A DNA stretch of 64,000 nt, taken from positions 1 through 64,000 of the forward strand of contig JBBRAE010000010.1 of assembly GCA_038207085.1 (NCBI GenBank), read 5' to 3'. Below, in pieces: positions 15,264 through 46,629 of this stretch. This stretch comes from Armatimonadota bacterium (GTDB lineage Bacteria; Armatimonadota; UBA5829; DTLH01). The position numbers and the translations under genes were made by a program. The notes beneath the pieces were generated by a model that did not search any database, was not told the DNA's origin, and saw only the letters and a program-made list of their open reading frames with translations. Position 1 is the stretch's first letter; every line of letters starts with the position of its first letter.

Positions 15264-15360
15264 TAGACTATTCTCCTCGACCCCACCGGTTTCAGATATC
15301 AGAATAGAGAACCGTCGGCTACCGAGCCTCACGCCGATAGCCGACGACTGATCACTCTAT

Positions 15361-18300: not shown

Positions 18301-18375
18301 ATAGAGCCCCAACATGAGCCCAAGCGCCAAGCGCACATGCGATATTCCAATCCCAAACATCTTCATCTTCTTCAT
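15361..18375 (-). CDS. Secreted beta-propeller-like repeat protein with the shared C-terminal domain
   Basis: Signal peptide, about 12 repeats of PxVAxxGxxxLVVWxDxR...DIYGxRV, and a GLNNLGLLV C-terminal domain. The start may be 18375 or 18366. Confidence 0.85.
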   Translation of the reverse strand: MKKMKMFGIGISHVRLALGLMLGLYIALAGPVSAIDIGPETQVAGVVAPELGSQDTPAVAAWPGGYLAVYQDKRSVTDVDVCGVFIDANGNPIGESFVISTVTGGTGATNDQLAPSVAFNGTNFLVVWADNRGGVAGNQFYQIYGARVSTSGTVLDPNGLVISNVAGLRQYSPEVASNGTDWEVVWQRDTSITLDIYGAKVSAAGVASGVVGISTSSGNDESPAIVWNGSYYMVVFQKSGEADYDVYGVIVTSSGAIYKPAFLLSTDPAIDPNNPSMMTGAQISPRVAAGPGGMCMVVWQDSRNTDTATDVYGVRVSATGQLYDVENLPIYVASGSQETPSVGWDGTNYLVAWRDRAVLPAKLYGTRVDRDGFVLDSPFITLSTTAPDRASGSCAASLGGKTLVLWAVSVSSVLDVYSCMVTSDASVSAERIVSVGGTDQPTYQAAFDGTNFVVVWTDRRAAKSAVYAARVTPFGEVLTPGGVLISSSTSEQKEPAICWNGTMFLVTWTEGTTSDSDIKGVRMNSDLSMIDSTPLIIGVGDWAQYASSIAGNSTGFMVIWTDTKQASMANQTDIMGARVNAATGEVTRISTTAFGVTVEGVCNETHDQYYPSVASDGSNWLVVWQDMRGTTADVYFARLNSTGSVVGTVNGAKVSTATGAKMSPSVAFDGTRYMIAWADYRNDTTKADIYGVRMTTTGARVDASDIAICSVAGSDQSSPSIKWAGDRYFVAWQDARNGAYQIYAARVSAAGSVTDSGGFFVSSGGSGEIKPKLAAGGTNWVLALYGKWVYPVNKLYMRTMGDQLALPLVSVAETRTSPNGRLITLSGKVVTAGTTQLSGRLYVEDGDRTAGICVPTAVSAGETAIVNVTGILATVGGERQITNAVVTVSPNTGTVPAPFGLVLSSLGGGTMSSAITGVIDGGGLNNLGLLVRVCGKVISTGSGYFMMQDGSTSSDVKVACPAGVTLPTVGKTVGVTGISSCEAATGGYARKLLARKPADIVTFN

Positions 18376-18599
18376 CCTTTCAATCTTCTGTCCTTTGTCT
18401 TCCGGCGTCCGCCCACCCGGGCATCGGACGAGACTGATCTCATTACTGGCACGATTCTTGCACATCGTACATCTAGCGGCTAAGCTTGTTGTCTTTCCCA
18501 GACAATCAATGTCAAGCCCAAATCACAAACCAACAATATGGCCGGATCTACCGGCAGTGCCTTTCTTGAAAAGGCAAATCACAGGAGGCGTAGTTCACA

Positions 18600-19124
18600 A
18601 TGAAGTTCAAACCAGTCATCACACTTGCAGCGGCCGCCGTGCTTCTTAGCGCGGGAATCTCTTTTGCCGCAAACACATTCAACGTCACCGTAGATCAGGG
18701 AAGCATCGCCAACACCTGGGTCTACACCATCTGGAACGACGACTCTACCGGCCTGGTTCCAGTCGCGCTCGATCTTGAGTGGGATACAGACCCGGAGGAT
18801 TACGATACGTCCGGTCTCGATGCTCCGGAAAACTGGTCTGCCGACTCTGTTTATAGCTTCTTCTACCCTGCGTGGAGTTACGACACCACGAGCAACCAGC
18901 CGCTCACCTTCGGGGAACACCTCACCGGGTTCGTAGTCTCCGCAAGCGAAAAGCCTACAATCTGGACGGTCTATCTCGAAGACGCGGACGGCGTCGATAT
19001 GGGCGAGCAAGCCGGCATCATCTCAGACAACTCAGGAGTAACTCCCGAGCCCGGCAGCTTCGCTGCGCTCCTTGGCGGACTCGCCACCATCGGCGGAGCG
19101 TTCGCGAGAAAGCGCCGAGCCTAA
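18600..19124 (+). CDS. PEP-CTERM sorting domain protein
   Basis: Signal peptide, acidic core and C-terminal TPEPGSFAALLGGLATIGGAFARKRRA. AGGAGG RBS. Confidence 0.93.
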   Translation: MKFKPVITLAAAAVLLSAGISFAANTFNVTVDQGSIANTWVYTIWNDDSTGLVPVALDLEWDTDPEDYDTSGLDAPENWSADSVYSFFYPAWSYDTTSNQPLTFGEHLTGFVVSASEKPTIWTVYLEDADGVDMGEQAGIISDNSGVTPEPGSFAALLGGLATIGGAFARKRRA

Positions 19125-19199: not shown

Positions 19200-20651
19200 C
19201 TAATGAGCGATCTGCTTCCACATCTTTTCGTATTCAAAGTCCGGGTTGAACTCCTCCGTGTGGCAGCTTCGACACGTTTCTTCGCCGATTGCGCCGTAAC
19301 CCTTCGATGGAACCGCGGAGTGCCCCGCACCGGATCCGTGGCACGACTCGCACTGCACGTTTATGAGTTCAGGGGTGCTGTTTGCGTCACTGAAGCCACC
19401 GCGGTACATGGCCCCCGTGGAGTGGCACGAGATGCACTCGGGGTCAAAGTCCTGTTTGCGGTTCACAAGCGAGGCAAACGCGTTCGCGTGGCGCGACGCC
19501 TTCCAAGTGTCGTAAGCCTTCTCATGACACGATTTGCAGCTATCTGAGGTGACGAACAACTTCGGTTTCTTGAACTGCGCCGGGTCAATGCCACGCTTGG
19601 CAAGACGCGTGAGCACCTGGTCTTTGATCTGCTTCTGCTGGCGCACCACGAGGTCCTGTACCTTCGTGTTGTACTCCTCGTAGACCTTGACGATCGCCGG
19701 GCTTTCCTCAAACGACCGCCCGAGATAGATCAGACTGTTCTTGGCGTATTTCACCCCGCCTGGTTTGATCGTAACGTCGAGCCTTCCCAGACTCCAACCC
19801 ATCCTTGAAAGGCTCTTCACGAGCAGACAGTTGCCGACCTTCTCGACCGGAGACTCCACCGTCATCTTGTCCTTTTCCGGCATCGGAACGGTCTCAGCCT
19901 CACGGTGCGCAATGATCACCACGTCGACCCCGGGCACTGCGGCAAGTGGCCTGCCGCGCTTGATCGTCGTATGAGCAACGACCACTACGAAGTCTGCGCC
20001 GCCCCTTACCTTGGAAAGCGTCTTTTTGAGCGAAGCCGCAGGGTCTGAGCCGGAAAACTCACTGTTGTTCCGAGGAAGCACTCCGGTGTCGACCAAGCCG
20101 ACGACCGCAACCTTCAGCCCTCCGGCGGTGGTAACAAGAGTGTAGGGTTTGGAGAAAAGGGCGCTTCCTGAAGGAGCTTTCAGGTTGCCTGCGACAAAGG
20201 GGACGCCCGATGCGCTCTGGTAGGCCCCGAGCGCCTTCGCGCCGAAGGCGAGGTCCGCCTCGCCAGGGACAACCGCGTTGTAACCGATCAGCTTGATCGC
20301 TTTGACCGAAGCGTCGGCCTTGAGCTTGTCCTGATCGGACTCGGGGTTGCCGAGAAAGTCGCCGCCCTCCACCATTACAATGTCTTTAGCCTCACTGCGG
20401 ATTGCGTCAACAGCCGTAGCCTGGCGCGAAAAACCGCCAAAGCGGAACTTGGAGCAGTTGCACGAGCGGATCTGCCCAGACTCGTCGCCGGTGTACAGAA
20501 TCGTCAGTTTGCTTGGCTTGGGCTTGGGCCGGGGCTTGACCGGGGCCTTCACCACTGCTGCGGACATACCGCCGACAAACAACACTCCTATCACCGCAAG
20601 CGCGCACTGTTTCAGTCGCAACGGGCCGATCTCAAAGTATCCACGCATCAC
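19200..20651 (-). CDS. UshA/5'-nucleotidase-like metallophosphoesterase-fold domain fused to a tetraheme c554-type cytochrome c
   Basis: N-domain motifs LYTGDESGQIRSCNC..GG, EGGDF and PGEADL. Four CxxCH motifs: CKSCH, CISCH, CESCH and CRSCH. Confidence 0.85.
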   Translation of the reverse strand: MMRGYFEIGPLRLKQCALAVIGVLFVGGMSAAVVKAPVKPRPKPKPSKLTILYTGDESGQIRSCNCSKFRFGGFSRQATAVDAIRSEAKDIVMVEGGDFLGNPESDQDKLKADASVKAIKLIGYNAVVPGEADLAFGAKALGAYQSASGVPFVAGNLKAPSGSALFSKPYTLVTTAGGLKVAVVGLVDTGVLPRNNSEFSGSDPAASLKKTLSKVRGGADFVVVVAHTTIKRGRPLAAVPGVDVVIIAHREAETVPMPEKDKMTVESPVEKVGNCLLVKSLSRMGWSLGRLDVTIKPGGVKYAKNSLIYLGRSFEESPAIVKVYEEYNTKVQDLVVRQQKQIKDQVLTRLAKRGIDPAQFKKPKLFVTSDSCKSCHEKAYDTWKASRHANAFASLVNRKQDFDPECISCHSTGAMYRGGFSDANSTPELINVQCESCHGSGAGHSAVPSKGYGAIGEETCRSCHTEEFNPDFEYEKMWKQIAH

Positions 20652-20802: not shown

Positions 20803-21465
20803 CTAGTGCTTGGGCGGTGTCCCTGCGTTGTGGTTGCGCATCGGGATGATCGGCACCCCCTTCGGAATCTCGAACTTGCTATCGGGGATGCTCACTCCAC
20901 GCTTGTAGGTAACGTAAGAGACCGTCCGATGGAACGTCTTGCCACCCTTGACAGGATTGCTGATCAGAAGCTGCGCGGGGGTCTGGGTCTTCGGGTTCAC
21001 CAGAAGCTTGCAGTCTGTGTTTGATGTTTTGTCCTTGTAAGTGTAAGCGTCGCATTTGATCGCGCCTACCTTTACCGGGGTGACTTTTTTGGCGTTCTGG
21101 GACTTGAGAAACGCTTTGACATCTCCACAGGGTCCGGGTATATAGGAAGTCGGGATATACCGGGAGGAACCCGCCGGATACTTGCCGATCTGCCTGCCAC
21201 TCGATGGCAGAAGAAACGCGCCGTCCTTGTTCCTGATGGCGGTACTCTTTACTCGTGTGCCGGATTTTGCATCCCCGCAGTCGTAGTCAAACCGAAAATT
21301 GGCGCCCTTGACGTACATGTCCCGCGTTCCCTCGTTGCCGAGGCCCGATTTCACCTTTACCTGATAGTAAAGCGTGTCCGGTTTGTTCTGGGCGAACACC
21401 TGCCCAGGGCAGACCAAAGCACCGGCGATAGCGGCAATTGCAAAGACTCTCTTCATGTTCATCAT
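20803..21465 (-). CDS. Secreted LolA-fold/DUF4412-like protein
   Basis: Signal peptide, GxxCDxY and a C-terminal IPDSKFEIPKG motif. GGAGGG RBS. The family assignment is tentative. Confidence 0.6.
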   Translation of the reverse strand: MMNMKRVFAIAAIAGALVCPGQVFAQNKPDTLYYQVKVKSGLGNEGTRDMYVKGANFRFDYDCGDAKSGTRVKSTAIRNKDGAFLLPSSGRQIGKYPAGSSRYIPTSYIPGPCGDVKAFLKSQNAKKVTPVKVGAIKCDAYTYKDKTSNTDCKLLVNPKTQTPAQLLISNPVKGGKTFHRTVSYVTYKRGVSIPDSKFEIPKGVPIIPMRNHNAGTPPKH

Positions 21466-21567: not shown

Positions 21568-22551
21568 TTATTTTGCAGTTTGAAAGACTCCAAACTTTTT
21601 TGCGATATACTCGACGTCGATTAGAAGTTTGCAGCACGCCGGGCTCTCGGCGCTCTGCGCGATCCCCGTGCCGTACCCACCCACTGCCGGAGCAAGCGGT
21701 GTCGCCGCAATGCACCTGTCAGCGGCTGCAAGCTCAAAATCTCCAAGCGCCATCCCGGCGCCTGTGGTATCACCAAAGTTCAGGCAGGCCTGCGCCAGAG
21801 CAACATAGCCCTGAAGCTGATAGAACAGCGCCTCGTCACTTACAAGTGGCGTCCCCGACAACCCAAACGGCATCTCGTGAAACACGTCGAGCGTGCGCTT
21901 CAAACTCGACAGGTCCGCGTCCAGCTTCCACTGCCACACCTCACAGTGCGCATAGGCGGGTTTGTTTGGGCCGGAGCCGTCGTCGTCCCATGCCTTGCAG
22001 GTGCCGTAGAGCAGGGTCAGTTTCCAGGTAGTCCCCGGAGCCTCGAAAAGAAGCGGCCACCATGTTCTGATGTTCGGCGTTCCGTGCTGCGTGATGGGGG
22101 TATCGACAAACACCTCCGAGCACTGGACCTCGGACGGCCTCTCCTTGACCAAAATGACGTTCTTGATCGTATAATAGAGCCCCAACGAAGCGGCGCCCAC
22201 ATAGTTTCTCCACATCTCGTTTGCAGGTTCGATGCAGCCGTTGCCGTTTACGTCCCTGTGTCCCGGATCGATCGCCAGGATCCCGGGCACCGCGCTTATG
22301 ACCTCTCGGGATACCTTTGAGTATCCTCGAAAGTCCCTGTCACCCCGCTGTGCGCTCGTTCCGCTCTGTCCCAGGTATGCGTTATACACAGGAATGGCGG
22401 GCCGAACTGTGGCGGCGGCGATTCTTTCCCCGGCAGATGGCCGGGCCAAAACTACAATTAGCGCGGCTGCGAGAATGCAGCCGGTGGCGCTATCCGCGCC
22501 AGCCATTAAGAGACGGCGCGGATAGCGCCGTCGACTTGTTCGGTCTTTCAC
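21568..22551 (-). CDS. Secreted hypothetical protein with NIRTWWPL domain (paralog 1)
   Basis: Aligns by eye with 23025-23969 and with the C-terminus of 31069-35577. The start is uncertain (GTG 22551 or ATG 22506). Confidence 0.8.
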   Translation of the reverse strand: MKDRTSRRRYPRRLLMAGADSATGCILAAALIVVLARPSAGERIAAATVRPAIPVYNAYLGQSGTSAQRGDRDFRGYSKVSREVISAVPGILAIDPGHRDVNGNGCIEPANEMWRNYVGAASLGLYYTIKNVILVKERPSEVQCSEVFVDTPITQHGTPNIRTWWPLLFEAPGTTWKLTLLYGTCKAWDDDGSGPNKPAYAHCEVWQWKLDADLSSLKRTLDVFHEMPFGLSGTPLVSDEALFYQLQGYVALAQACLNFGDTTGAGMALGDFELAAADRCIAATPLAPAVGGYGTGIAQSAESPACCKLLIDVEYIAKKFGVFQTAK

Positions 22552-22945
22552 TGTGACGTCCTTCTGAAGGGCGTTGCGGGCAGCAATCACGCTCGCCTCA
22601 CCCTCTATAAGCACTGTAATCGCGCACATATTGCTGCGTCACAATGGTGTGGGGAGACCGAACTCCCGAACGACCCAGGTTCGTCCGTGAAACTCTCTGT
22701 GACGGTGCATCCACCGAACTGTCGCGGATCCATTCCGCTTGATACCGTCCGGAGACTGTCCATCCTTGTGCACGTCTAACATGATTCCTGTTCTTTGCCG
22801 TAGCACTTGAGCCGCGTACAGAAACTCCGAAGAAGAGTTCATCAAAGACAAATAATCAAGTCAATCGGACACTAGAGCCAGGGGATGGTATTTGCGTTGG
22901 TTAATGCTTTTTCTGACCGGTATTACGGTGTATCACTGATCTTGA

Positions 22946-22981
22946 AAAAGTGGCCCCGGCCCGTTTGGACCGGGGCCACTC
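22946..22981 (-). terminator. Intrinsic terminator downstream of 23025-23969
   Basis: AGTGGCCCCGG...CCGGGGCCACT stem with a TTTT tail on the minus strand. Confidence 0.8.
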
Positions 22982-23024
22982 TATAGCCGTGCCGGATGAA
23001 TCACTCCATCAGGCCGCTAACCTC

Positions 23025-23969
23025 TTAGGACTTCTTGGTTGCGAAGATACCATACTTTGCAGCAAGGAACTCCACGTCTATGAGAAGCTTGCATACTGCA
23101 GGATTCTCTGATGTCTGGGCGATACCAGTGTAAACGCCACCGGGGAACGGCTGGAACGGGCTGGTGCTGATTGCAGCATCCTGAACCTCGAGCTCGAACT
23201 CGCCGAGGAGGAGGCTAGCGCCAGCATAGTCCTGGGCACCGAGCAGAGCAGAGATCTGCTGAACCATACCCTGGAGCTGCACATAGAGTGCTTCGTTGGA
23301 GATAAGCGGAACCTCGTCCAGACCGAACGGAACCTGATGGAACAGCGCGAGCAAGTTGCTCAGGCTATCGAAGGTTACGTCCACGGACCATTTCCAGGTT
23401 TCCTGATGAACAGGGGAACCGGGGTTGATCAGAGAGCCGTCGTCGTCATAGTTGACAACGTCATTGACGCCGGGTCCGACGCGAAGCTGCGGGGTTCCGT
23501 AAAGAACGGTGAGGGTCCAGACTGTGCCAGGAGCCTCATACATCAGCGGCCACCAGGTCCTGATGTTAGCAGTTCCCTGCTGGGTGATTGTCTTGGCAGC
23601 ATAAACTTCGTTGCACTGAACGAAGGTCGGGGTCTTCTTCTGAAGAACCACGTTCTTGATCGTGTAGCCAAGCTGCCAAATCCCGCCAAGGGAGTTCGCA
23701 TTTGCTGCGCCAACGAAGTTTGACCAGCTTGCGCCGGGAACGATTGAGAACACGCCAGGAACGGCAGTGATGACGTCGCGTTCGGTTCCGGCATAGCCGA
23801 GGAAGTTAGTGTCAACGCCGTTGCTGTTACCAGCATACGCCTGGTAAACAAGGAAGTCAGTGCCCTCATGGACGATGGGAAGAACCTGGATTCTGGCAGC
23901 CATTGCCGGCAGGCATACGATGGCCAGAGCGATTGCGAAAGAAACTACGTACCTCTTTGTTACTTGCAT
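23025..23969 (-). CDS. Secreted hypothetical protein with NIRTWWPL domain (paralog 2); candidate abundant surface protein
   Basis: Signal peptide MQVTKRYVVSFAIALAIVCLPAMA. ATG 23969 follows GAGGAGAGGAG. Has its own promoter and terminator. Confidence 0.88.
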   Translation of the reverse strand: MQVTKRYVVSFAIALAIVCLPAMAARIQVLPIVHEGTDFLVYQAYAGNSNGVDTNFLGYAGTERDVITAVPGVFSIVPGASWSNFVGAANANSLGGIWQLGYTIKNVVLQKKTPTFVQCNEVYAAKTITQQGTANIRTWWPLMYEAPGTVWTLTVLYGTPQLRVGPGVNDVVNYDDDGSLINPGSPVHQETWKWSVDVTFDSLSNLLALFHQVPFGLDEVPLISNEALYVQLQGMVQQISALLGAQDYAGASLLLGEFELEVQDAAISTSPFQPFPGGVYTGIAQTSENPAVCKLLIDVEFLAAKYGIFATKKS

Positions 23970-24302
23970 TTGGATTGCTCCTCTCCTCATAAGCTTGAGC
24001 TTTGATGGAAACGATAATTGTGTGCTGATTGGTAGACTCGCTTTAGCTGTCTCTGTCCCAGACCGGCCAGCACGCTTCGGAATGGTTCGTCTCTGTCCGG
24101 GTGCCTCAAACCAAGGGGCGCCTCCCCCTGGTCGTTGGACAAAACTTCCTGGACATAGGAAACAGCCGTTCTTCTTTTGCTCTACGCTATAACATCACCC
24201 CCTGCGAGCCACAGATTTGACATCGGGTTGCCAGTTTGATAGCAATTGTATTCTCCCGGCCAATGTGGACGATTTTATGTCAGCTCGCCAACCACCGATC
24301 GC

Positions 24303-24331
24303 ATTATACTGTCACTATTACGCGTTGTCAA
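24303..24331 (-). promoter_or_regulatory. Perfect-consensus sigma70 promoter for 23025-23969
   Basis: The minus strand reads TTGACA-acgcgtaatagtgacag (17 nt)-TATAAT, with an AT-rich tract upstream. Confidence 0.85.
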
Positions 24332-24839
24332 CAGCCATTCTTTATAAATCAGGGTTATTCAAGCAAAATCAGGTATTCTTACCAGTATTTGCAGCTTTTA
24401 CCCTCTTGGAACTATGCCCAAAGTTGATTCAGACTCGGCCGAATCCAACGCTGTGCTGGTATTACCCAGCAACAATAGGAGGCAAACATAGTGCCGATAA
24501 AAAATGCTATTTGTGGGCGAATTCAGGTATTATTACCTGCTTTCTGAGGTGTAATTGGCATCTATTCGTTGTCACATGGTCCAATATACGACGATTTATG
24601 GCGTTTTTTGCTTAAGAGCTTGAATTACAGCCCTCGCCAGCCCCGGACGGGCAGATTCTCATATCGACCTCCGTTCTACTCCTTTGTCACATGCAGGTCC
24701 GACCCGTCCCCCGACGCACGTGCCTGATTGGCACGGTTTTTGCAAGTGTGACTGGTGGATGTACCAGCACTGGGCCAATCTGAATATATGGACATTGGAA
24801 CCACTGGTGTTGGCATCCGGATTGAAGGGAGACGGACCG

Positions 24840-26087
24840 ATGCATACCCTTAATTTGCGCAACATTCCCATAGCCGTGGGCGTGGCTGCCGCACTGGTGA
24901 CGTGTCTTGCCCCACCAGCGCTCGCGCAGCTCGACGGCGAACACCCCGCTTTCAGAGTGGACGCCCGCCGCACTGGAAGATCTGTCTACGCAGGCGCTGA
25001 TGACTCACTGATCCACTGGAGGACCGACCTCGGGGGAATCCTGTCCTCACCGGCGATCGATTCTGACGGGACGATCTACGCCGGCTCGTTCAACTCAACG
25101 CTTTACGCGGTAAACCGTGACGGCTCGGTAAAGTGGGAGTATCCGACCGCGGGCTGGATATCGTCGTCCCCGGCGATCGGCAAGGACGGCACAGTGTTTG
25201 TCGGCAGCCAGGACAACTACCTCCACGCGGTCAACCCCGATGGCACGAACAAATGGAAGTATTGGACGGGACAGCCGCCCAGCCTTCCCGCGCCTGTCTA
25301 CACTTCGCCCGTGATCAGCCGTAACAACGTATTGCTCTTCACCTCCGATCGCGGGATGGTGTATGCAAACGACGCGGACACCGGAGCATCGCTTTGGACA
25401 GCGAACATCGCGCCCTACAGCCTGTCATCGCCGTCCGTTGGGGATGACGGCACAGTCTACGTCGGGGACGCAAACGGTGACCTCCACAGCATCAGAGCCG
25501 ACGGCTCGACCGCCTGGAAGTTTCACACCGGCAACCGAATAGGAACCGCACCCGCGATAGGAGACGACGGAACGATCTATGTGACCTCGGCTGACGGCAA
25601 TTGCTACGCGATAAACCCCAACGGCACACGGAAGTGGGCTTACGCCTCGATGGGAGCGATCGGCTCCTCGCCGACCATCGGCTACGACGGCACGATCTAT
25701 TTCGGCTCAAACGACGGCTACTTCCACGCTGTAAACGCCGCCACAGGGACTCGCAAGTGGATGTTTATGGTCGGAATGCAAATATCGTCCTCGGCGACCG
25801 TCGACATTAACAACAACCTCTACTTCGGCGGCCAGGACGGCAAGGTCTACTCGGTCAACTCTTCTGGGCTCCTGAGGTGGAAGACGGATGTCGGCAGCAG
25901 AATTGACTCCTCGCCCTCCATAGACAGCCTGGGGACGGTTTACATCGGGACTCAGGGCGGCGAACTGATCGCGATAGGCGACGCCAACCAAGTCGTGGCG
26001 AACGCCCCGGAGCCCTCCTCGATCATCCTGGGACTCATCGCAGCCCCCGGAATCTTCGCACTGGCAAGGCGCAGGCGAACAAGCTAA
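24840..26087 (+). CDS. PQQ-like/BamB beta-propeller protein with PEP-CTERM
   Basis: Signal peptide, 8 SSPxIxxDGTxYxGS repeats and C-terminal APEPSSIILGLIAAPGIFALARRRR. Confidence 0.92.
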   Translation: MHTLNLRNIPIAVGVAAALVTCLAPPALAQLDGEHPAFRVDARRTGRSVYAGADDSLIHWRTDLGGILSSPAIDSDGTIYAGSFNSTLYAVNRDGSVKWEYPTAGWISSSPAIGKDGTVFVGSQDNYLHAVNPDGTNKWKYWTGQPPSLPAPVYTSPVISRNNVLLFTSDRGMVYANDADTGASLWTANIAPYSLSSPSVGDDGTVYVGDANGDLHSIRADGSTAWKFHTGNRIGTAPAIGDDGTIYVTSADGNCYAINPNGTRKWAYASMGAIGSSPTIGYDGTIYFGSNDGYFHAVNAATGTRKWMFMVGMQISSSATVDINNNLYFGGQDGKVYSVNSSGLLRWKTDVGSRIDSSPSIDSLGTVYIGTQGGELIAIGDANQVVANAPEPSSIILGLIAAPGIFALARRRRTS

Positions 26088-26115
26088 CGTAACCAATCAA
26101 TCGGTCCGCAACAAA

Positions 26116-26152
26116 GAAGCGGCGTCCTTCCAATGGAGGGACGCCGCTTTTG
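26116..26152. terminator. Terminator between convergent genes
   Basis: AAGCGGCGTCCTTCC...GGAGGGACGCCGCTTTT. Confidence 0.75.
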
Positions 26153-26172
26153 GCATTTGGATTTGATCGTGA

Positions 26173-29100
26173 CTACATAAGATCCATATCCCAGATATCC
26201 CTGGGGCGCACCGTCCGATAGAACTGTCCACCGCTTGAGATAAGGGAACTGATCCCCGTCACCGCAACAAACTGCCCCTCGTTCGGGGACAGGACGTTTT
26301 CGCAGTCGATTCGCACACCCTTGTAGGGGGAGTTATCCTGCGCGCCGGAGCCGTCGTCGATGTAGAAATACAGAGCAGTGGCCTTGGTGACCAGTCCGAC
26401 GACGCGCACGAGCATCCCGATGTTGTTCAGCCCAACGCCGCCCGGTATCCCCCGCTGTCCTGCCCCTGTAGCGGCGTCAAAGAGGCCTCCGCCGCCAAGT
26501 GTGCGCACGGTCATCCCAAGGGGCTTAGGCACGGTCCCAAGCGTGCTTGCTGCGGTCAGAGTGAACGGTGTGATCTGCCGCTCGCCGTTTGGCGCAGTGC
26601 CAATGGTGCCCTGCAGCGTGACCACTTTGCCACGGGTCATGTTCTCGGTGCTTACGACCCTGATCCCTGATGACCTGTCGGTTTCCTGGATGTAGAAGTG
26701 GTTGCCAAAGTCCTCAACCCCGCCGGAGACAACCTTGCCCGCGAGCGAGACCTCTTCGTTGTCGCCGAGCGTCTTCACGTAAGCCAAGCTTGGCATTGGA
26801 CCCGGGCTTGGCATTACACCGAGCAATCCGGCGAAATTCACTCCCTGTGTGCCGATCCCTCGCACGACGTTGACGGTCTTGGAGAGCGGGTTGAACGTCC
26901 AGTAGGGTTTGGCGGCGGTGACCACGTGCTTGCCTTCATCCACTTCTGAGACCAGATAAGTGCCGTCGACACCCGTCCGCGCCGAGGCCGAAATCCCGCT
27001 GACCGCCACGTTGATACCGGCGACGGGGTGCTGCCCGGACAAATACTCAATCTTGTCGCAGACAAAACCGTAGTCGTTGTCCATTTCATCAGAGGCAAGC
27101 TGCACAGTAAGATGGTCCCCGGGAATCCATGAGCTCCACATATCGACTAGGTCACCAGTGATCTCGTCGACCACGTTGTCGTTTCCATCAAGCACATAGA
27201 CATAGTCAAACCCCGACTCGACTAGAAGCGAGGAGAAATGCACCCGCACACTTGGCGCGCCCACAGGGGCCTGAACGGCGTAGGGTATCGTCGCGTTGTT
27301 CGCATAGGGATGCGTGGACTGCACCAGGATCGACTGCTGAACACACGCGCTCGATGTAACCGTTCCCGAAACCGACCCAGGCGGAGAAGCTAGAAAGTCC
27401 ACCCCGCCCGTCGCGCCGCCGCTTGGCACGGAGACGGTCCTGATGTCCGGGTTAAATATCCAATGCGCAAGAGCCGGAGCAACGGTGTAAGTGACGGGCT
27501 CAAGGCCCGCAAACGAGTATGTCCCGTCGGCCTGCGTGACTGCGCTGTGCCCGCCGGGTTCCGCTGTCACGGTGACGCCTGCAAGCGGCCCGTTGGCGAT
27601 CGTGTTGGTCTCGTAACCGCTGATGTAGAACCCCCAAAATCCGGGCCCGACATAGCTTGCGTCAGGCACCAGCACGACCTTCAGAGTGTTGCCGCTCACC
27701 CAGTTGCTCCAAACGTCTGAAGCGTCGCCGGTGTAGGTGTTGACGATCGTGCCGTCGGGAGTTTCTACATAGAGGTAGTCGATATGCCCAAGATCGGTGT
27801 TGTTCAGAAGCGCTATCTCCTCGAAGTGCACCCTGATCTGGCTCGCGCCCGGATGGCCGGTGATCGTATAGACGATCGGCGCGGCGTCGGAATATGGGTG
27901 TTCCGTCTCAAGGATATACCCCACGCGACCACCGACGGCCTGGGTAATCGTGCCCGAAACGCTTCCCGGTTGCCCTGTCCCAACAAAGTCGACACCCGTC
28001 ACGGGGTTCTCCGTAACAGTGATCTCCCTTGACGTAGGGTCAAACGTCCAACCCGTCTTTGATGGGGTGATGGTATATGTGCCGGGTGAAAGCGGCATGG
28101 TGTAGCTTCCACTTGCACCGGTGGAGATGGTCTGCGACCCCTCAGAGCCGGTTGCTGTGATCGTTGCCCCCTGCACGGGAGCGCCGCTTGCGGTAGTCAC
28201 CGTTCCAGCGCCGTAGCCCGACGGAAGCATCCCCGAGATAGCGAGCGCGAAAGGCTGAGGGCCGGATGGGACGTTGGTTCCCGAAACGGTGACGGTGTAG
28301 CTACCTGAGACGGGCGAGGCGATGTCGACGCTTTCGACGTTGTTGGTGTTGTCGCTTGTCCCGTTGCCCCGGTAGAGCGTGCCGGTCGGCCCGGTCACGG
28401 TGAGATCGAGGTTGTTGACGAGTTGTTTGCCCGAAAGGGTCGAAGGCGCTGGGTCGGTCCACACAAGCGTCACGGCAAGCGGCTCTGCAGACCCTAGCAC
28501 GTTGTAGACGTAGGTGCGGGATCCGCCCGTCGATATCCCCGCGACCTCATCGGCGCTTGCCAGCACGCGGGGAAGCGTCGGCACAGGGTTTGAGGCGAAG
28601 TTGAGAAGCCCCCACCCTTCGACGTTGTTTGGACGGCTGAACGGAATCTCTTTCTTGGTCCCGGAGCCGTACTGGCCGGGGAAGATGTCCTTTGCGCCGT
28701 TTAGCAGTGTCGCCTTGATCAGCGCCGCGCTCGGCTGGGAACCGCGGCTCTTCATGTAGTACTCTCTCACAAGCGCGGCAGCTCCGGCGACCATCGGGGT
28801 GGACATACTGGTGCCGCCCCAATACATATAGTTGGAGTTGATCGCCCCCCACCCCGTCGTCAAAGCAATATGGCTGCGCGCGGAGGCGATGTTCGTGCCG
28901 GGCGCACAGATATCGGGTTTGATCCTCCCGTCCTGGCAGGGTCCGCGTCCACTCCAGGCGACCATGCCCCGTCCGCGATCGGCGGAGCTTGGAGTATCGG
29001 AGATGTAGTCAGTCCTGATCGGGTCGGATGAAAAATCGTCCGGCCAGCCCGAGACGCCTCCGTAGGTGGCGATCTTGCCGCCGGTCTGGCGAACGCTTTC

Positions 29101-30297
29101 TGTCGCTCCGACTGTGATGCAGTTCTTGGCCGTCCCCGGAGAGTAGAGCGCACTGAGGTCGGTTATGCCGTCCTTGTTTGCGTCGCGGGCGTCATTTCCG
29201 GCGGCGAACAGGACGACAAAGTCCTTGTGGTTCCAGCAGAACTCATCCACCTGCTGGGAGTACATCGAGTATTGACCAGATCCCGGAGTGCCCCAACTGT
29301 TGCTGTGGATCCGTGCGCCGTCGTCATAGGCAGGAGAAAACAGGGTGGCGAGGTTGAGCGGCGGGTAGATAAAGCCGTTTGCGTCGCCGATCGACTGCAT
29401 CACCAAGCCAGACTCCGGGGCGACGCCCGCGTAGGAGCCCGTGTAGGAATGGCTCGCGGGGTTGCTCCCCGAAAGCACGCCGGAGCCTGCGGCGATACCC
29501 GAGACATGTGTGCCATGTCCGTGGGGGTCGCCCCAGTCGGTCCGGCGCATCGCGTAGCCGTTCACCAGCCTGCCTGAGAAGTCGGCGGACAGGGTCCCGT
29601 CGCTTCCTGTGTCGAGCCCGGTGTCGGACACCGCGATGATCTGTCCCTCGCCATAGAACCCGGCACGGGTGCGAAACTCGGGAAGACCGACGAGTCCCTG
29701 GGCGACGTTGTTTGCGAGCTTGGGCTGTTTCCATTCTTCGATCCACTCCACGCTTTCGATTGCGGAGAGGCTCGCAAGCAGGCTGGTCGGAACAATGGCG
29801 CGGATGTAGGAGTCTGTCAGTTCGGATTTTCTAAATATCACGCCTCCCCCTAAACGGATCACCCGCTCAAGAGTGGCAGAAAGTTCGCCGTCAAAGAGTC
29901 TGATCACCACATCAGAGTAATCCCGCCGGGTCGCGCGCAGCCCCGAGTCTATACGCCTCTCAGGCGCGAGCTTATCGACAAAGCTCACAAAGTCGAGCTT
30001 GTGAACCCGTTTCGCCTGCGCGCGCGTCATCTTGACCACAAAGGCGTACTCCGGCACGTACTCGCCGATCTCCGCACCTTCGCCTGTGACGGCGGACTTC
30101 CACTCGTCGCTGACCGGCCCGTTGAACTGGACGATATAGTAGCGCGGTTTGTCGACGCCAACAGCAGTCGAGTCGGTCGAGAACTTCGCCTTGGGTGCGG
30201 GTTCGATCTCGCCGGTCCTCAGTCGAATCGGCGCTGCGAAGGCTGTGGCCGACGCGGCAACAAGAACAAGCAGGGTGGCAAGAATTCTTCTTCTCAT
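26173..30297 (-). CDS. Secreted S8 subtilase (Kp43-like) with prodomain, carboxypeptidase-regulatory-like and CUB-like modules, and the shared C-terminal domain
   Basis: Catalytic triad motifs SDTG, HGTH and GTSMS; also FAAGN, TAKNCITVGA, DGRIKPD and C-terminal GLNNIGMLV. Confidence 0.93.
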   Translation of the reverse strand: MRRRILATLLVLVAASATAFAAPIRLRTGEIEPAPKAKFSTDSTAVGVDKPRYYIVQFNGPVSDEWKSAVTGEGAEIGEYVPEYAFVVKMTRAQAKRVHKLDFVSFVDKLAPERRIDSGLRATRRDYSDVVIRLFDGELSATLERVIRLGGGVIFRKSELTDSYIRAIVPTSLLASLSAIESVEWIEEWKQPKLANNVAQGLVGLPEFRTRAGFYGEGQIIAVSDTGLDTGSDGTLSADFSGRLVNGYAMRRTDWGDPHGHGTHVSGIAAGSGVLSGSNPASHSYTGSYAGVAPESGLVMQSIGDANGFIYPPLNLATLFSPAYDDGARIHSNSWGTPGSGQYSMYSQQVDEFCWNHKDFVVLFAAGNDARDANKDGITDLSALYSPGTAKNCITVGATESVRQTGGKIATYGGVSGWPDDFSSDPIRTDYISDTPSSADRGRGMVAWSGRGPCQDGRIKPDICAPGTNIASARSHIALTTGWGAINSNYMYWGGTSMSTPMVAGAAALVREYYMKSRGSQPSAALIKATLLNGAKDIFPGQYGSGTKKEIPFSRPNNVEGWGLLNFASNPVPTLPRVLASADEVAGISTGGSRTYVYNVLGSAEPLAVTLVWTDPAPSTLSGKQLVNNLDLTVTGPTGTLYRGNGTSDNTNNVESVDIASPVSGSYTVTVSGTNVPSGPQPFALAISGMLPSGYGAGTVTTASGAPVQGATITATGSEGSQTISTGASGSYTMPLSPGTYTITPSKTGWTFDPTSREITVTENPVTGVDFVGTGQPGSVSGTITQAVGGRVGYILETEHPYSDAAPIVYTITGHPGASQIRVHFEEIALLNNTDLGHIDYLYVETPDGTIVNTYTGDASDVWSNWVSGNTLKVVLVPDASYVGPGFWGFYISGYETNTIANGPLAGVTVTAEPGGHSAVTQADGTYSFAGLEPVTYTVAPALAHWIFNPDIRTVSVPSGGATGGVDFLASPPGSVSGTVTSSACVQQSILVQSTHPYANNATIPYAVQAPVGAPSVRVHFSSLLVESGFDYVYVLDGNDNVVDEITGDLVDMWSSWIPGDHLTVQLASDEMDNDYGFVCDKIEYLSGQHPVAGINVAVSGISASARTGVDGTYLVSEVDEGKHVVTAAKPYWTFNPLSKTVNVVRGIGTQGVNFAGLLGVMPSPGPMPSLAYVKTLGDNEEVSLAGKVVSGGVEDFGNHFYIQETDRSSGIRVVSTENMTRGKVVTLQGTIGTAPNGERQITPFTLTAASTLGTVPKPLGMTVRTLGGGGLFDAATGAGQRGIPGGVGLNNIGMLVRVVGLVTKATALYFYIDDGSGAQDNSPYKGVRIDCENVLSPNEGQFVAVTGISSLISSGGQFYRTVRPRDIWDMDLM

Positions 30298-30550
30298 TGT
30301 AGTTTCATCCTGTTCTCAAATATTGTGGTGCTGATCGATGGCGCTTGTTCCGCCTTCTTTGCGAGGCGTTCCTCGCCGTCCGAGCTTCTGGCTCAGCCAT
30401 AAGGGGATTTTACCCCCTTTTGTAGTATGCCAAGCAAGCGAGCAAGAGTCAACCGGCAATTGTGCCGGTATGGGGCCTATAGCAGTGCCGGGTTAAGAAC
30501 ACAAATATTCATTACAGACATATTTCTTCTCTTTTTGCAGCAAGTAACAC

Positions 30551-30580
30551 TTGACAAACACATGCAGTCAGGCATAGAAT
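30551..30580 (+). promoter_or_regulatory. Candidate sigma70 promoter for 31069-35577
   Basis: TTGACA-18 nt-TAGAAT. Confidence 0.55.
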
Positions 30581-31068
30581 GCTGTAACTATTACCGGGTA
30601 TTGGAGCACCCTACGACCTTGGCGCTAACTTCTCATCAAACGTGAATATTTAGTGACGTTTTAGCAAAATGAGAAAATGCAAACAGGGTCCAAATTAAGT
30701 TTAAGGTGAGCAGCAGGCGGGTAAGACCGTCCCGATGGCAGGATGCCAGCGGTATTAGTGGGCTGGAGACCTCCGCAGTATAAGCGGAGGCTTAAAAGGG
30801 TTTCGCATGTACGTGCACGTGCGCACCCGAATCAATCAGAGCGCAGGCCAGACAAACCGAGCGTTCCAGGGGCTACCGAGGATAAGCCGCGCGAACAATC
30901 CGCGCGCACACCTCTTTCACCTCTCGCACTAAGACAAGCCATGGATGGCGGCTGAGTCTCAATATTTTTGCCCTCGTTGCGGGCGGACACAAAGTTGAGA
31001 CCAACGGCACGTCAGTACAAACAAACATTTCCACAATCTTCGAGATCCGGAGGAAAGGAAGGACTGGA

Positions 31069-34000
31069 ATGAAAGCGCTAGACTTTCGCATGGCGGTGGT
31101 GGCACTTGTCTTTGTGACAATACTCACTGCCGCCAGCGGCGCACTCGCCAACACTTTAACTCTTACAGGGGACATCGACACCGATTTCCTCGGTAAACCG
31201 GGCGTGATCATCAAAGATGGCACGTTCTTCCAACCAAATTATACCAACGGAGGCGCTCCGTTGGCAGCCTTCAGGCCAAACGGAAGCCGCCTGATTGCAG
31301 AGGGGACACAAGTCCCATCAGGTTTTCACGTCAGTAGAGTCGCGGTAAACTACGACTGCAAGACCGACACCGTGTACGTTGGTTTTGATGTGTCAAACCC
31401 GACACTCGACGCTACTCCGTTGCCCACCGGGGAGATATCCCGGGCATGGGACGCGGACGGCGATGGTGACCCTTGCACTGTCACCAACAGCATGTTGAAC
31501 GACACAGGCGAAATTGACACGGGTCTGCCGGGAAACGACGACATTCCGACAGCTGACCGAATCGAACTGAGCGAGAAGTACATTCTATTCCTCAAGTTTG
31601 GAGGACTGAATGTTACACTCAGGACCTACGACGACGGCACATCAATCGCGGATGACGCAGTATCTCCCAACTTCCTTCACAAGCACTACGGCAACCCGTG
31701 TCCAGAGAGCCCAATCATCCACGCGACACTGAGCGCCGTCAATGGAGGCGTGATATCGCTTCCGGGCAAGGGCGTAGACTTTGACGTAGTCTACGTCAAC
31801 TCTGGCAAAGCCAACTATGACACACATCGCGACATTGAGTTCGTGATCAAGGGGCTGAAAAACGTGGTACCTGCAGGCACCAACCTACAAACGCTCTGCA
31901 GTATGAACCTGTCGACCTTCACCGACAGCGACTACGACGCATCCAGTGAAGCGAGCCTCGATTGGAAGACTTTCGACTTCGTGAGCACAGCAGCTCCAGT
32001 CGTGACCTGCGAGAAGAGTGTGGATACCCCACAGCTCAGCTCACTCCCGGCTACCGTCACCTATACACTCAAGGCGACGAACGAGAGCCCCGACGGCACG
32101 AACGAGAACATCACCATCTTCGACCCCGACCTCGGCGTCGACCAGACATTCACAGGCGTCGCCAAGGGCCAGACCAAGACCGTCACGGTTCAGAAGACCT
32201 TTGGGGCCGAGTTCTGCGGCAGCGCACCTTTTGTCAACACGATGTACGTGAGCGCAGTCCCCGCCGACTGCTGCTCGACAGGAGCCGCAACATCATCGTG
32301 CTCTGCCACCGTCACACCTCCACCGCCCGCGAACGTAAGCGTGAGCTGCACCAAGGTGGCCGACAAGACTAAGCTCTGCCAACTGCCGGACACCGTTAAG
32401 TATACGATCACGGCGCGAAACACTAGCTCCACTGACACTACGGTCACGATGAGGGTAGTCGACGCGAAGCTTGGAGTCGACCAGACATTCACAGGAGTCA
32501 AGCCGGGAGATGTTAAGACCATTGAGGTCAATAAGACTTTCGGAACCGACTTCTGCGGAAGCGACCCATACGTAAACACTGTAACGGTCTCTGCCACAGC
32601 CGAAGGATGGGCCTGCGGAGTCACCTCTGCTACATCGGCATGCACCGCGACAGTCAACCCGCCCGACCTTGCAAAAGTGAAGGTGAGCTGCACCAAAGTC
32701 GCAGACGCGGCAAGGCTCTGCACGCTCCCAACTACGGTGACCTACACAATTACCGCCAAAAACGACAGCGAGACCGACACGCCCGTCAAACTCTGCATTA
32801 TAGACCCGCAACTTGGGGTCAACCAGTGCTTTGACAACGTCGTTAAGGGCGAGACCAAAACGCTTCAGGTGCAGAAGGTCTTTGGAACCGACTTCTGCGG
32901 AAGCGATCCGTTCGTCAACACTGTAACGGTGTCTGCAACTGCTCTGGGATGCGTCTGCGGAACCACATCGGCGACATCGTCCTGCACGACTACAATCAGC
33001 TCGCCTGAGATCGCAAAAGTCGTGGTGAGCTGCAGCAAGGTGGCCGACAAGACCACACTTTGCAGACTTCCTGATACGGTGACCTACACGCTCACCGCAA
33101 CCAACAATTCCATCACCGAAACGCCGGTCACACTCTGTATCATCGACCCGGCGCTCGGCATCAACCAGTGCTTCACCGCAGTAGCCAAGGGACAGAGCAG
33201 AAGCCTGCAGGTCCAAAAGACCTTCGGGACCGACTTCTGCGGAAGCGACCCGTTCGTCAACACCATGACCGCATCCGGCGCCGCTGAGGGCTGCGGCTGC
33301 GGAACAGTGACGGCGATATCCACATGCTCGGCATCGGTCGCACCGCCGCCCACGGCAAACGTCCAGATAACATGCCTCAAAACGGTCGACAAGCCGAAGC
33401 TCTGCAGGCTGCCGGAATCGGTGACCTACACTCTGTCGGCGACCAACGTCAGCCCGACCAACACACCGGTCACACTCGTGATAAGCGATCCCATCCTCGG
33501 GGTCAACCAGACATTCACCGGCGTCGCCAAGGGACAGACCAAGACGGTCACAGTCCAAAAGACGTTCGGAGTCGACTTCTGCGGAAGCGCGCCGTTCCTG
33601 AACACCATGACCGCATCCGCTGGCGCTGAAGGCTGCGTCTGCGGAACACTGACCGCCGTAAGCACATGCACGACAAAGGTAGAAGCGCCTGACACAGTGA
33701 TCCCCAAGGTCACCTGCCTTAAGACGGTCGACAAGGTCAAGCTGTGCACGCTGCCTGACACCGTGACCTATACGCTGCAGGCAACAAACGACAGCGAGAC
33801 GAACACGGCTCTTACGCTTCGCATCGTCGACACCAAGCTCGGCGTCGACCAGACCTTCACCGGCGTCGCCAAGGGACAGACCAAGACGGTCACAGTCCAA
33901 AAGACGTTCGGAGCCGACTTCTGCGGAAGCGCACCGTTCCTGAACACCATGACCGTCAGCGGAACGGTTGAAGGCTGCGGCTGCGGAACGCTTACGGCCA

Positions 34001-35577
34001 CATCATCGTGCTCGGCAAGCGTAGGTCCGCCCGACACCGTCAAAGTAGATGTCAGCTGCAGCAAACTCGTCGACAAACCGAGTATCTGCGAGCTTCCGGC
34101 GACTGTCGTTTACCAGCTCTCTGCTATGAACACCGGTGACACGACGGTCTCGATGCAGATCTACGACGCGGCGCTTGGGATCAACCAGATCTTCACCGGA
34201 GTCAAACCCGGCGAAACCAAGTCCGTGACAGCCCAGAAGACCTTCGGAGTCGAGTTCTGCGGAAGCGACCCGATCATCAACACGATGCAGGTGTCGGCTG
34301 TGGCCGAAGGCGGATGCGTCTGCGGAACCACCTCAGCGACATCGGCCTGCACCGCGACGGTCACGCTCCCGAGAACGAGCCTACTGACCTGCTCGGGACT
34401 CATCAACGGACAGGAGGAGATACACCTCCTCAAGTCCGACCTGCCGACGACTCTGCACTATCAGTTCCAGCTCTGTAACACAGGTCAGGTGAGTCTGGAC
34501 TGCGAGCTTGAGCTGCCCAACGTTCCCTCGGGAACTATATTCGACACCCCGGGCGACGCTGACGGCAAATGGCGCTACACCCTGGCCGCGGGCGAATGCA
34601 AGACCATCCTCGGCGAGATATTCGTCACCCCCGATATGGTGCCCTGTCCGGGCCAGATCGAGTGGAACACGCCGATGATCATCACAGCTGAACCGTCACA
34701 GGGCGAGTGCGCTTGTCCGGTAGTGATGACGGATTCGTGCAGCCCGGTTGTTACCATCGGCTGTCCAGGGCTTTCTCAGGCATATCCTGCGACAAGCCTC
34801 GGTAAGGATGCCTCGTTTGTGGGTTACCAGGGCAGAGGCGGAGATGTCATCAACGCTATCGGTGGCATATTCAGCATCGTCCCGGGTAACAAGTGGAGCA
34901 ACTTCATCAAGGCTGCGCGCGACGGTTGGGCCGGCGGCTACACTGTCAAGAACATAGTATTGAGGAAAGAGACTCCTGAGTTCATCCAGTGCAACGAGGT
35001 CTACAAGCCTCGGAAGGTCGTCCAGCAGGGAACGGTAAACATCCGCACCTGGTGGCCGCTTATGTATGAGGCTCCGGGAACCCAGTGGACGTTGACCATC
35101 CTTTACGGAACCGGTCAAGTCCGGGTCGGACCGAACGTAAACGACGTAACCAACTACGACTACGACGGCACAGGCCCACTGCCTGCGGCGACAGTTCACA
35201 CCGACACCTGGGACTGGAAGGTCGACGCTGACCTCAGCACTCTGGGCAGGCTCCTTGACCTGTTCCACGAGATTCCGTTCGGGATGGACGAAGTCCCGCT
35301 GATCTCGGATGAGGTTCTCTACCCCGCACTGAAAGCTAAGCTTGCGGAGGTCGAGGCTTTCGTCAGGACCAACAACACCGCCGAAGCCGGGCTCGCCTTT
35401 GGTGAGTTCGAGCTTATGGTGGAGGATGCATGCATTTCCTCCTCGCCGGTGCTGCCGTATCCCACCAACAACGGGACGGGAATCGCACAGTCAAGCGAGA
35501 ACCCGGCCTGCTGCAAGATACTGATCGACGTGGAGTATATTGCAAAGAAGCTGGGATTGTTCGTAACAGGTAAGTAA
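31069..35577 (+). CDS. Large secreted protein with 7 (plus 1 degenerate) Cys-rich DUF11-like repeats and a C-terminal NIRTWWPL domain (paralog 3)
   Basis: Signal peptide and ~113-aa repeats CxKxxD...LCxLPxTVTYTxxAxN...FCGSxPFxNT...CxCG...C. The last ~270 aa are homologous to paralogs 1 and 2. Confidence 0.9.
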   Translation: MKALDFRMAVVALVFVTILTAASGALANTLTLTGDIDTDFLGKPGVIIKDGTFFQPNYTNGGAPLAAFRPNGSRLIAEGTQVPSGFHVSRVAVNYDCKTDTVYVGFDVSNPTLDATPLPTGEISRAWDADGDGDPCTVTNSMLNDTGEIDTGLPGNDDIPTADRIELSEKYILFLKFGGLNVTLRTYDDGTSIADDAVSPNFLHKHYGNPCPESPIIHATLSAVNGGVISLPGKGVDFDVVYVNSGKANYDTHRDIEFVIKGLKNVVPAGTNLQTLCSMNLSTFTDSDYDASSEASLDWKTFDFVSTAAPVVTCEKSVDTPQLSSLPATVTYTLKATNESPDGTNENITIFDPDLGVDQTFTGVAKGQTKTVTVQKTFGAEFCGSAPFVNTMYVSAVPADCCSTGAATSSCSATVTPPPPANVSVSCTKVADKTKLCQLPDTVKYTITARNTSSTDTTVTMRVVDAKLGVDQTFTGVKPGDVKTIEVNKTFGTDFCGSDPYVNTVTVSATAEGWACGVTSATSACTATVNPPDLAKVKVSCTKVADAARLCTLPTTVTYTITAKNDSETDTPVKLCIIDPQLGVNQCFDNVVKGETKTLQVQKVFGTDFCGSDPFVNTVTVSATALGCVCGTTSATSSCTTTISSPEIAKVVVSCSKVADKTTLCRLPDTVTYTLTATNNSITETPVTLCIIDPALGINQCFTAVAKGQSRSLQVQKTFGTDFCGSDPFVNTMTASGAAEGCGCGTVTAISTCSASVAPPPTANVQITCLKTVDKPKLCRLPESVTYTLSATNVSPTNTPVTLVISDPILGVNQTFTGVAKGQTKTVTVQKTFGVDFCGSAPFLNTMTASAGAEGCVCGTLTAVSTCTTKVEAPDTVIPKVTCLKTVDKVKLCTLPDTVTYTLQATNDSETNTALTLRIVDTKLGVDQTFTGVAKGQTKTVTVQKTFGADFCGSAPFLNTMTVSGTVEGCGCGTLTATSSCSASVGPPDTVKVDVSCSKLVDKPSICELPATVVYQLSAMNTGDTTVSMQIYDAALGINQIFTGVKPGETKSVTAQKTFGVEFCGSDPIINTMQVSAVAEGGCVCGTTSATSACTATVTLPRTSLLTCSGLINGQEEIHLLKSDLPTTLHYQFQLCNTGQVSLDCELELPNVPSGTIFDTPGDADGKWRYTLAAGECKTILGEIFVTPDMVPCPGQIEWNTPMIITAEPSQGECACPVVMTDSCSPVVTIGCPGLSQAYPATSLGKDASFVGYQGRGGDVINAIGGIFSIVPGNKWSNFIKAARDGWAGGYTVKNIVLRKETPEFIQCNEVYKPRKVVQQGTVNIRTWWPLMYEAPGTQWTLTILYGTGQVRVGPNVNDVTNYDYDGTGPLPAATVHTDTWDWKVDADLSTLGRLLDLFHEIPFGMDEVPLISDEVLYPALKAKLAEVEAFVRTNNTAEAGLAFGEFELMVEDACISSSPVLPYPTNNGTGIAQSSENPACCKILIDVEYIAKKLGLFVTGK

Positions 35578-41535: not shown

Positions 41536-41735
41536 TTGTAAGTGCCTCCTTAAACTACCATTGAGCCACTTAGCTTCACGAAGTCTGGCTTTGCCAAGTA
41601 CGTAGTAACACCTACGGGGATCGTGTGCGCATCCTTGCGGCTTCTCAGTCGTCGCCAAAAATCACATCCGGCCCCATTTCCAGCAAAGCGCTGGATGGAG
41701 CATCTTTGGATGTCCGGCATGCGACCATTTTGTGC

Positions 41736-46527: not shown

Positions 46528-46629
46528 ACAAATAGAATACCTGTTTTCTTCAGATTGCTCAACCGGCCGACACCGGCAGAGCCTGTGCAGCGGCATATAA
46601 CTAAATTACCCCGTAAAGAAGAGCCTGAA

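Follow-up and report, generated by a model that had tools for sequence, protein, structure and literature searches.

The window analysed here is a stretch of 64,000 nt (contig JBBRAE010000010.1, positions 1 to 64,000) from an Armatimonadota genome (GCA_038207085.1; 3.35 Mb in 83 contigs), termed G000 in our comparisons, where G008, G013, G159 and the like denote relatives. Between positions 21568 and 35577 it holds three genes for secreted proteins that share a domain of about 270 aa, which an earlier note on this DNA had read as the subunit domain of a self-assembling lattice or filament, a candidate surface-layer (S-layer) system. The open reading frames (ORFs) exist, at 21568-22629 (−), 23025-23990 (−; likely start 23969) and 31069-35577 (+).

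A common domain in stand-alone and stalked secreted proteins

The domain is colinear in all three proteins; relative to the 23025-23969 protein, identity is 49% and 57%. The domain alignment recovered all motifs of the earlier note. Comparison of the copies by tblastn gave E values of 1e-77 to 1e-102, far beyond chance. As described before, the two short proteins consist of a signal peptide and the domain, and the 31069-35577 protein carries it below an Ig-like stalk of seven clear repeats and one divergent repeat. Three copies is the correct count for the window; the genome total is six, with a 279-aa stand-alone protein, a fusion with an ice-binding head and a fusion with an SdrD stalk as further copies. 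The features of these genes are listed here, the terms main subunit and cargo following our interpretation:

21568..22551, − strand: minor stand-alone paralog; start uncertain (22629, 22551 or 22506)
22213..22260, − strand: DxNGNG insertion of the minor paralog (alignment)
22943..22980, − strand: intrinsic terminator 3′ of the main subunit, a strong hairpin and T tract (seen by folding, missed by the terminator scanner)
23025..23969, − strand: putative main subunit, 314 aa, signal peptide and one domain; mature protein 290 aa, 31 kDa, pI 4.5
23043..23378, − strand: FIMAH-like four-helix bundle with the inserts PFGxDEVP and xPxxPxPTGxGTGIA and the motif ENPACCKLL (structure and profile match)
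23379..23897, − strand: beta-sandwich subdomain, weakly Ig-like, mature residues 1-173 (AlphaFold models)
23856..23897, − strand: N-terminal arm with PIxH motif, mature residues 1-14; kept in stand-alone copies, a stalk in its place in head fusions
23898..23969, − strand: signal peptide of the signal peptidase I type, ending in AMA, without lipobox (sequence)
23970..24296, − strand: presumed long 5′ leader of the main-subunit mRNA, between promoter and start
24303..24331, − strand: TTGACA-17-TATAAT, a perfect sigma-70 consensus; putative promoter, some 330 nt ahead of the main-subunit start
31069..35577, + strand: cargo fusion, 1502 aa; signal peptide, head, Ig-like stalk, C-terminal domain
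31150..32004, + strand: head, residues 28-312 (285 aa); no Pfam or PDB sequence match
32005..34758, + strand: stalk of seven 114-aa Cys-rich Ig-like repeats and one divergent unit (repeat analysis)
34771..35574, + strand: C-terminal domain copy without the N-terminal arm; 11-residue loop insertion in common with the main subunit

The family lies outside the catalogues, as had been supposed: profile scans gave no Pfam or NCBIfam match for the domain, searches of PDB sequences returned nothing better than E 0.59, and no enzyme was matched. Relatives numbered 176 among 7998 scored candidates (196 representatives at 50% identity), and a divergent subfamily was also seen (186 matches; 77 short contigs). 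The named records are Armatimonadota, except for one Coriobacteriia and one Bryobacteraceae label on contigs of 6 kb and 2 kb, possibly through binning errors. Of 31 close relatives, 15 had the domain, as did 14 of 301 and 25 of 401 genomes of two phylum samples, all from the class of the window except one weak partial match. Phage records and viral contigs yielded no relative, and the idea of a capsid or prophage origin was therefore abandoned. The accessible text of the literature searched, including PMC11535203, PMC10167667, PMC9671151, bioRxiv 10.1101/2024.05.28.596244 and bioRxiv 10.1101/2024.12.30.630787, holds no description of this domain family.

A script sorted 311 domain copies, near-identical and fragmentary entries included, into 191 stand-alone copies, 89 that end a head-and-stalk protein, 9 tailed copies and 22 in tandem proteins, which carry 2 or 4 domains. 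Among the heads of 51 long proteins that were scanned are peptidases of the M4, M6, M23 and C10 families, ice-binding domains, vWA, LamG and propellers; they sit on stalks of the DUF11/DUF7507/SdrD type, with the domain at the C-terminus. The PIxH arm is present in 149/191 stand-alone copies, in 7/7 first tandem copies and in 4/89 head fusions. Eight tailed or tandem homologues end in a shared tail of about 200 aa behind the domain. The same uncatalogued tail (the last 210 aa or so) is found on three window neighbours (7314-15332, 15361-18465 and 26173-30297), among 23-25 proteins of G000, and in 28 of the 31 relatives, often in dozens of copies.

The 23025-23969 gene stands out in its codon usage. 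With ribosomal proteins as the reference it came first of 2313 ORFs, and fourth of 1967 in a stricter set-up; the SLH-porin, GroEL and EF-G scored no higher. With the stricter set-up its G000 paralogs ranked between 157 and 1605, and the codon use of the minor paralog is average (rank 919/1967). Ranks in three other genomes were taken from samples of about 360-400 kb; the conserved-locus copy reached 2/233 in G013 and was the best-ranked paralog in 4/4 genomes. The sigma-70 consensus upstream is one of 26 perfect sites in the genome. Taken together, the product is predicted to be among the most abundant proteins of the cell; codon adaptation, promoter and terminator lend indirect support to the view that it is the major subunit, and the average rank of the 21568 gene is consistent with its proposed role as a minor paralog.

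Folding of the leader was no better than that of shuffled sequences (z −0.94), and Rfam gave nothing at the gathering score in 18000-43000, with chance-level matches in the leader. Of the 60 complete genes of the divergent subfamily, 38 end within 150 nt of the 3′ end of their contig, where 25.6 were expected (P about 1e-4); this fits abundant single-gene transcripts, and could also reflect assembly breaks at hairpins. In ten related loci (L007, L009, L014, L017, L019, L020, L021, L024, L025, L077) a conserved element of about 70 nt lies on the opposite strand, some 330-420 nt upstream of the subunit gene, and is flanked by a sigma-70-like promoter on its 5′ side and a terminator hairpin on its 3′ side. 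It is absent from the window, had no Rfam match (L020), and is possibly a small RNA.

Export signals agree among stand-alone homologues, of which 92/107 have an AxA-type cleavage site, 3/107 a lipobox-like motif and 0/107 a C-terminal membrane helix. Known anchors (SLH, lipid, membrane helix) were not found, the main subunit having no Pfam domain, and profile scans and a motif check revealed neither a PEP-CTERM tail nor a lipobox, which speaks against a PEP-CTERM- or lipoprotein-anchored surface protein; an anchor of another kind may be present.

The minor paralog has two close homologues, P0033 and P0056. Among the window copies it alone carries the DxNGNG insertion HRDVNGNGCIEPANEM, in agreement with the earlier description; it resembles a loop of the EF-hand/dockerin type. 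A palindromic REP-like repeat of 54 nt (22481-22534) overlaps its 5′ end and occurs at 34 places in the genome.

Predicted fold, covariation and matching of cargo to subunit

An AlphaFold model built on 139 sequences (pLDDT 96.6, pTM 0.91) showed a beta subdomain (mature 1-173) followed by a four-helix bundle (174-285). Foldseek gave no match for the domain at E 0.001 in the PDB or viral libraries. Folded alone, the beta subdomain found generic Ig matches only, and the best of them (Z 5.1, rmsd 3.4, 88 residues) speaks for neither a new nor a shared fold. The best row for a solved S-layer protein, SlpA L/H, was weak (Z 4.0).

For the bundle, the best structural match was the C-terminal bundle of 7nsn (Z 11.8, rmsd 2.1, 89 residues), a score below the guide value of about 13 for helical bundles and 2.4 above the next row (9.4). 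We take this 7nsn bundle to be a Pfam FIMAH domain. A FIMAH profile built from 11 FIMAH hits, some of them doubtful, aligned with helices 2-3 in hhalign (probability 69, E 4e-5, 42 columns; reversed control E 0.37), and clusters in which 24-37% of the members bear FIMAH were reached with an Atlas score of 0.91. The domain also lies C-terminally on secreted proteins of many architectures, a trait of FIMAH. Pfam membership was rejected, since the PF22888 cut-off of 24.8 bits was not reached (2/139 members match, best E 0.14; no match in G000). The bundle is thus best called FIMAH-like. The earlier note was right on the sharing of the domain, and had overlooked this C-terminal third and the two conserved partner genes downstream of the subunit.

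Covariation was computed on 311, then on 498 sequences. The pairs C242-C268 (z 17-23) and C95-C269 (z 5) point to two disulfides; in the main subunit of the window the C242-C268 pair is lost together (A242/V268). By strand register, one end of the sandwich brings K81 together with G134 and close to Q107. Q94 lies past the other end of the nine-residue strand of K81, beside C95-C269 and E235, with K81 8 residues up-strand from its turn. The covariation of K81-Q94 (z 6.6, 7.0) and Q94-G134 (z 6.1, 5.2) suggests a contact between chains, and thereby self-association. A reciprocal K/Q swap at K81/Q94 was seen in the divergent subfamily. Conservation of this patch in head fusions was 0.73 for K81, 0.70 for Q94 and 0.80 for E235; in tandem and tailed copies it was 0.35, 0.25 and 0.48, with core residues staying. 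Isopeptide or ester cross-links were also considered (conserved K87, E121, N265 and D274; weak match to Cpe0147, Z 4.3).

The seven stalk repeats of the cargo fusion, of 113-114 aa (residues 313-1110; DNA period 342 nt), are weakly DUF11/DUF7507-like, and its elongated loop is common to the G000 main subunit and two G000 fusions. On a quick tree of 135 rows the head fusions need at least 8 changes, pointing to repeated origin, and the G000 main subunit forms a group with the two G000 fusions (SH-aLRT 97). Two genomes have ice-binding fusions whose heads share 70% identity; between the end domains identity is 53%, against 60% and 68% when each is compared with the main subunit of its own genome. 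The subunit of the same genome was the top match for 8/16 fusions in raw comparison and for 10/16 after centring, the best of 720 label permutations. This tracking would fit selection for co-assembly and indirectly supports the earlier suggestion that the stalk protein docks through the domain it shares with the subunit.

A proposed S-layer-like coat and its alternatives

With moderate confidence, we regard the stand-alone 31-kDa protein as the main subunit of an S-layer-like coat with co-assembling cargo; the earlier interpretation as a whole is partly supported. Judging from its sequence, the subunit would be exported by Sec with cleavage of the signal peptide; it is predicted to fold as a compact beta-sandwich and four-helix bundle, which the putative disulfides C95-C269 and C242-C268 would lock. 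The neighbouring LolA-like and CxC/tetraheme proteins (listed below) might handle it in the periplasm, as gene linkage suggests. In a symmetric contact, the far end of the sandwich (K81, Q107, G134) would sit on the bundle junction (Q94, E235) of the neighbouring chain. Cargo subunits would trade the N-terminal arm for an Ig stalk, make the same contacts and display their heads, and the rarer 1-, 2- or 4-copy forms with the lineage-wide C-terminal tail would tie the coat down.

A more detailed version is possible, if on balance doubtful. It sees an undescribed Armatimonadota S-layer made of a 31-kDa disulfide-locked subunit tiled by a two-fold contact, with private, sequence-matched stalked adhesins and proteases, tailed two- and four-copy pseudo-oligomers as anchors, and a LolA-fold carrier and a CxC/tetraheme protein for transport and disulfide formation. 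By analogy, the system works most like an S-layer with associated proteins, the lattice being putative. High expression, single-gene transcripts and long leaders are common traits of S-layer proteins. The main subunit resembles bacterial S-layer proteins in these predicted traits and in its signal peptide, acidity, Ig-like and helical parts and patchy occurrence. It differs in its small size (31 kDa), in lacking an SLH, lipid or membrane anchor, in matching solved S-layer proteins weakly at best, and in that cargo is fused to the subunit domain itself. Literature searches turned up no S-layer or major surface protein of Armatimonadota, and nothing relevant on FIMAH, PF22888 or co-assembling S-layer cargo. 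The accessible main text of an S-layer survey (bioRxiv 10.1101/2024.05.28.596244) does not mention the phylum, and the available part of a cryo-electron tomography description of Fervidibacter sacchari lists membranes and peptidoglycan and no S-layer. If the coat reading is correct, a small subunit that takes any N-terminal head would lend itself to use as a scaffold for surface display and represent a new S-layer fold. It would offer a handle on FIMAH-like bundles and UshA-like CxC/CxU multiheme proteins, two untested families, and disulfide formation in secreted Cys-rich proteins would become a testable role for the latter. The subunit is small enough for expression, and assembly could be tested without culture of the host.

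Several results weigh against the coat. The domain family is missing from about half of the close relatives (16/31), and identities of 42-71% between the main subunits of different genomes are high for S-layer proteins. In neither G159 fusion does the domain follow the main subunit of that genome, which ranks seventh and eighth of 12, and gene conversion alone could produce tracking without any constraint from assembly. The codon signal of the conserved-locus copy is modest in G008 (16/210) and G159 (26/218), a reference-free codon measure leaves the main gene at 495/1967, and a promoter match of at least 10/12 was found in just 2/21 upstream regions of relatives. The argument that the covarying residues are too far apart within one chain rests on strand register. 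Finally, the helical part is FIMAH-like, and FIMAH elsewhere is a single C-terminal appendage.

This FIMAH-like third keeps a simpler explanation alive, which we hold to be unlikely: the domain may anchor proteins to the surface, perhaps as a dimer, by binding lineage-specific glycan, lipopolysaccharide or slime, so that cargo would be tethered and the surface covered by the abundant stand-alone form, without crystalline order. Its C-terminal position under many unrelated heads would agree with this, and its high conservation would fit a fixed ligand. C-terminal anchoring modules such as SLH, CWB2, cohesin-dockerin and the C-terminal domain of type IX secretion are likewise common to unrelated secreted heads; the present domain is much larger than these and also a putative bulk subunit. 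The Neobacillus novalis GH92 bundle (PDB 7nsn, residues 1321-1411) and FIMAH PF22888 are likewise four-helix bundles placed C-terminally on secreted multidomain proteins; two long inserts, two probable disulfides, fusion with a sandwich of 170 aa and a stand-alone form predicted to be abundant set our domain apart. According to the accessible text on this mannosidase, its authors could assign no function to the bundle, and NnGH92 lost half of its binding to yeast wall extract when this similar bundle was deleted (PMC10167667). A fixed ligand would not require cargo domains to track the main subunit of each genome, however, and the lineage already has a different tail, at 19-91 places per genome in many relatives. 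Moreover, a stand-alone, anchor-only gene at the top of the codon ranking implies a bulk structural role.

Less probable still is a pilus-like filament of the main subunit, with armless head fusions as tip proteins and tailed forms as base anchors. The loss of the arm from nearly all head fusions would suit it, the end-to-junction covariation could be head-to-tail stacking, and several genomes have head fusions beside Tad pilus genes. Donor-strand filaments (chaperone-usher pili; the archaeal cannulae/TasA family, bioRxiv 10.1101/2024.12.30.630787) have, like our system, a major subunit and minor subunits whose N-terminal segment is replaced by a head; those pilins are not known to have a helical bundle. 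The arm of the domain appears packed in cis: unlike a free donor strand, it is confidently placed in the monomer models (pLDDT 89 for its first ten residues) and covaries with its own neighbours (I8-A20, H10-V17, P7-T167). The main subunit is probably not a donor-strand pilin. Head fusions retain both faces of the putative interface, and the patch, kept there and scrambled in tandem and tailed copies, favours a symmetric contact over a filament tip. The locus has no usher or sortase, and CpaB is absent from G000 and found in 7/14 genomes with the full system. A secreted enzyme or a metal or ligand binder working with the tetraheme partner (conserved K87, Q106, R113, H164, H187, E202, E264, D274; His10 and the DDDG loop) is very improbable. 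It could draw on the 31 positions that are at least 85% conserved across both subfamilies and on the tight linkage to a redox protein gene, but no enzyme was matched by sequence or fold, many of the conserved residues are Gly, Pro, Trp or Cys, and a place at the base of adhesin stalks and in two- and four-copy tandems fits a structural role.

Conserved partner genes and other neighbours

Four neighbouring genes recur with the putative coat subunit:

18600..19124, + strand: small PEP-CTERM protein, conserved neighbour (profile scan, neighbourhood comparison)
19200..20651, − strand: UshA-like scaffold with a CNC (CxC) motif, in fusion with a tetraheme cytochrome c; four CxxCH, NF041198 at 262.8 bits against a cut-off of 275
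20803..21465, − strand: secreted 220-aa partner, weakly DUF4412/DUF2092/ependymin-like (weak Pfam hits in 3/11 members each)
24684..26087, + strand: PQQ-type beta-propeller with PEP-CTERM, divergent conserved neighbour; true start probably later

The 220-aa gene follows the subunit in 13/35 stretches and the CxC/tetraheme gene does so in 15/35. Among the 31 genomes, the 220-aa gene is present together with the domain in 14 and absent together with it in 15; it occurs alone in one genome, in another context, and is missing from one that has a weak domain match only. It adjoins a domain gene in 14/14 genomes. Its product may have a LolA fold, to judge by this weak resemblance. From gene linkage, the two partners may act in carriage of the subunit and in disulfide formation. 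UshA-like paralogs were found in all 31 genomes, and many of them (in G000, G008, G013, G019 and others) carry a single in-frame TGA close to the CxC position, as would be the case for selenocysteine; the locus copy has Cys.

Ahead of the PQQ/PEP-CTERM gene, at about 24720-24740 (+), lies a TGGCAC-N5-TTGCA sequence, which we take to be a sigma-54-like site and which is found in the same place in related loci. It would put the start of this gene later than 24684.

No usher, chaperone or sortase was found among the window neighbours or the conserved clusters. In L003, L005, L008, L010, L026-L029 and L095 domain fusions stand on both sides of a full Tad pilus cluster; the syntenic spot of the window (about 30300-31000) has no such cluster. 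CpaB scored over the cut-off in 4/17 of the genomes outside the 14 with the full system. Given its distribution and the lack of Tad in G000, Tad was rejected as a dedicated export route. Behind the long fusion, the window encodes a secreted 1887-aa protein with FN3 and an LVIVD propeller (35995-41658), which is syntenic in relatives. Further downstream, at 45421-46596, a radical SAM heme b synthase, AhbD, scored above its cut-off.

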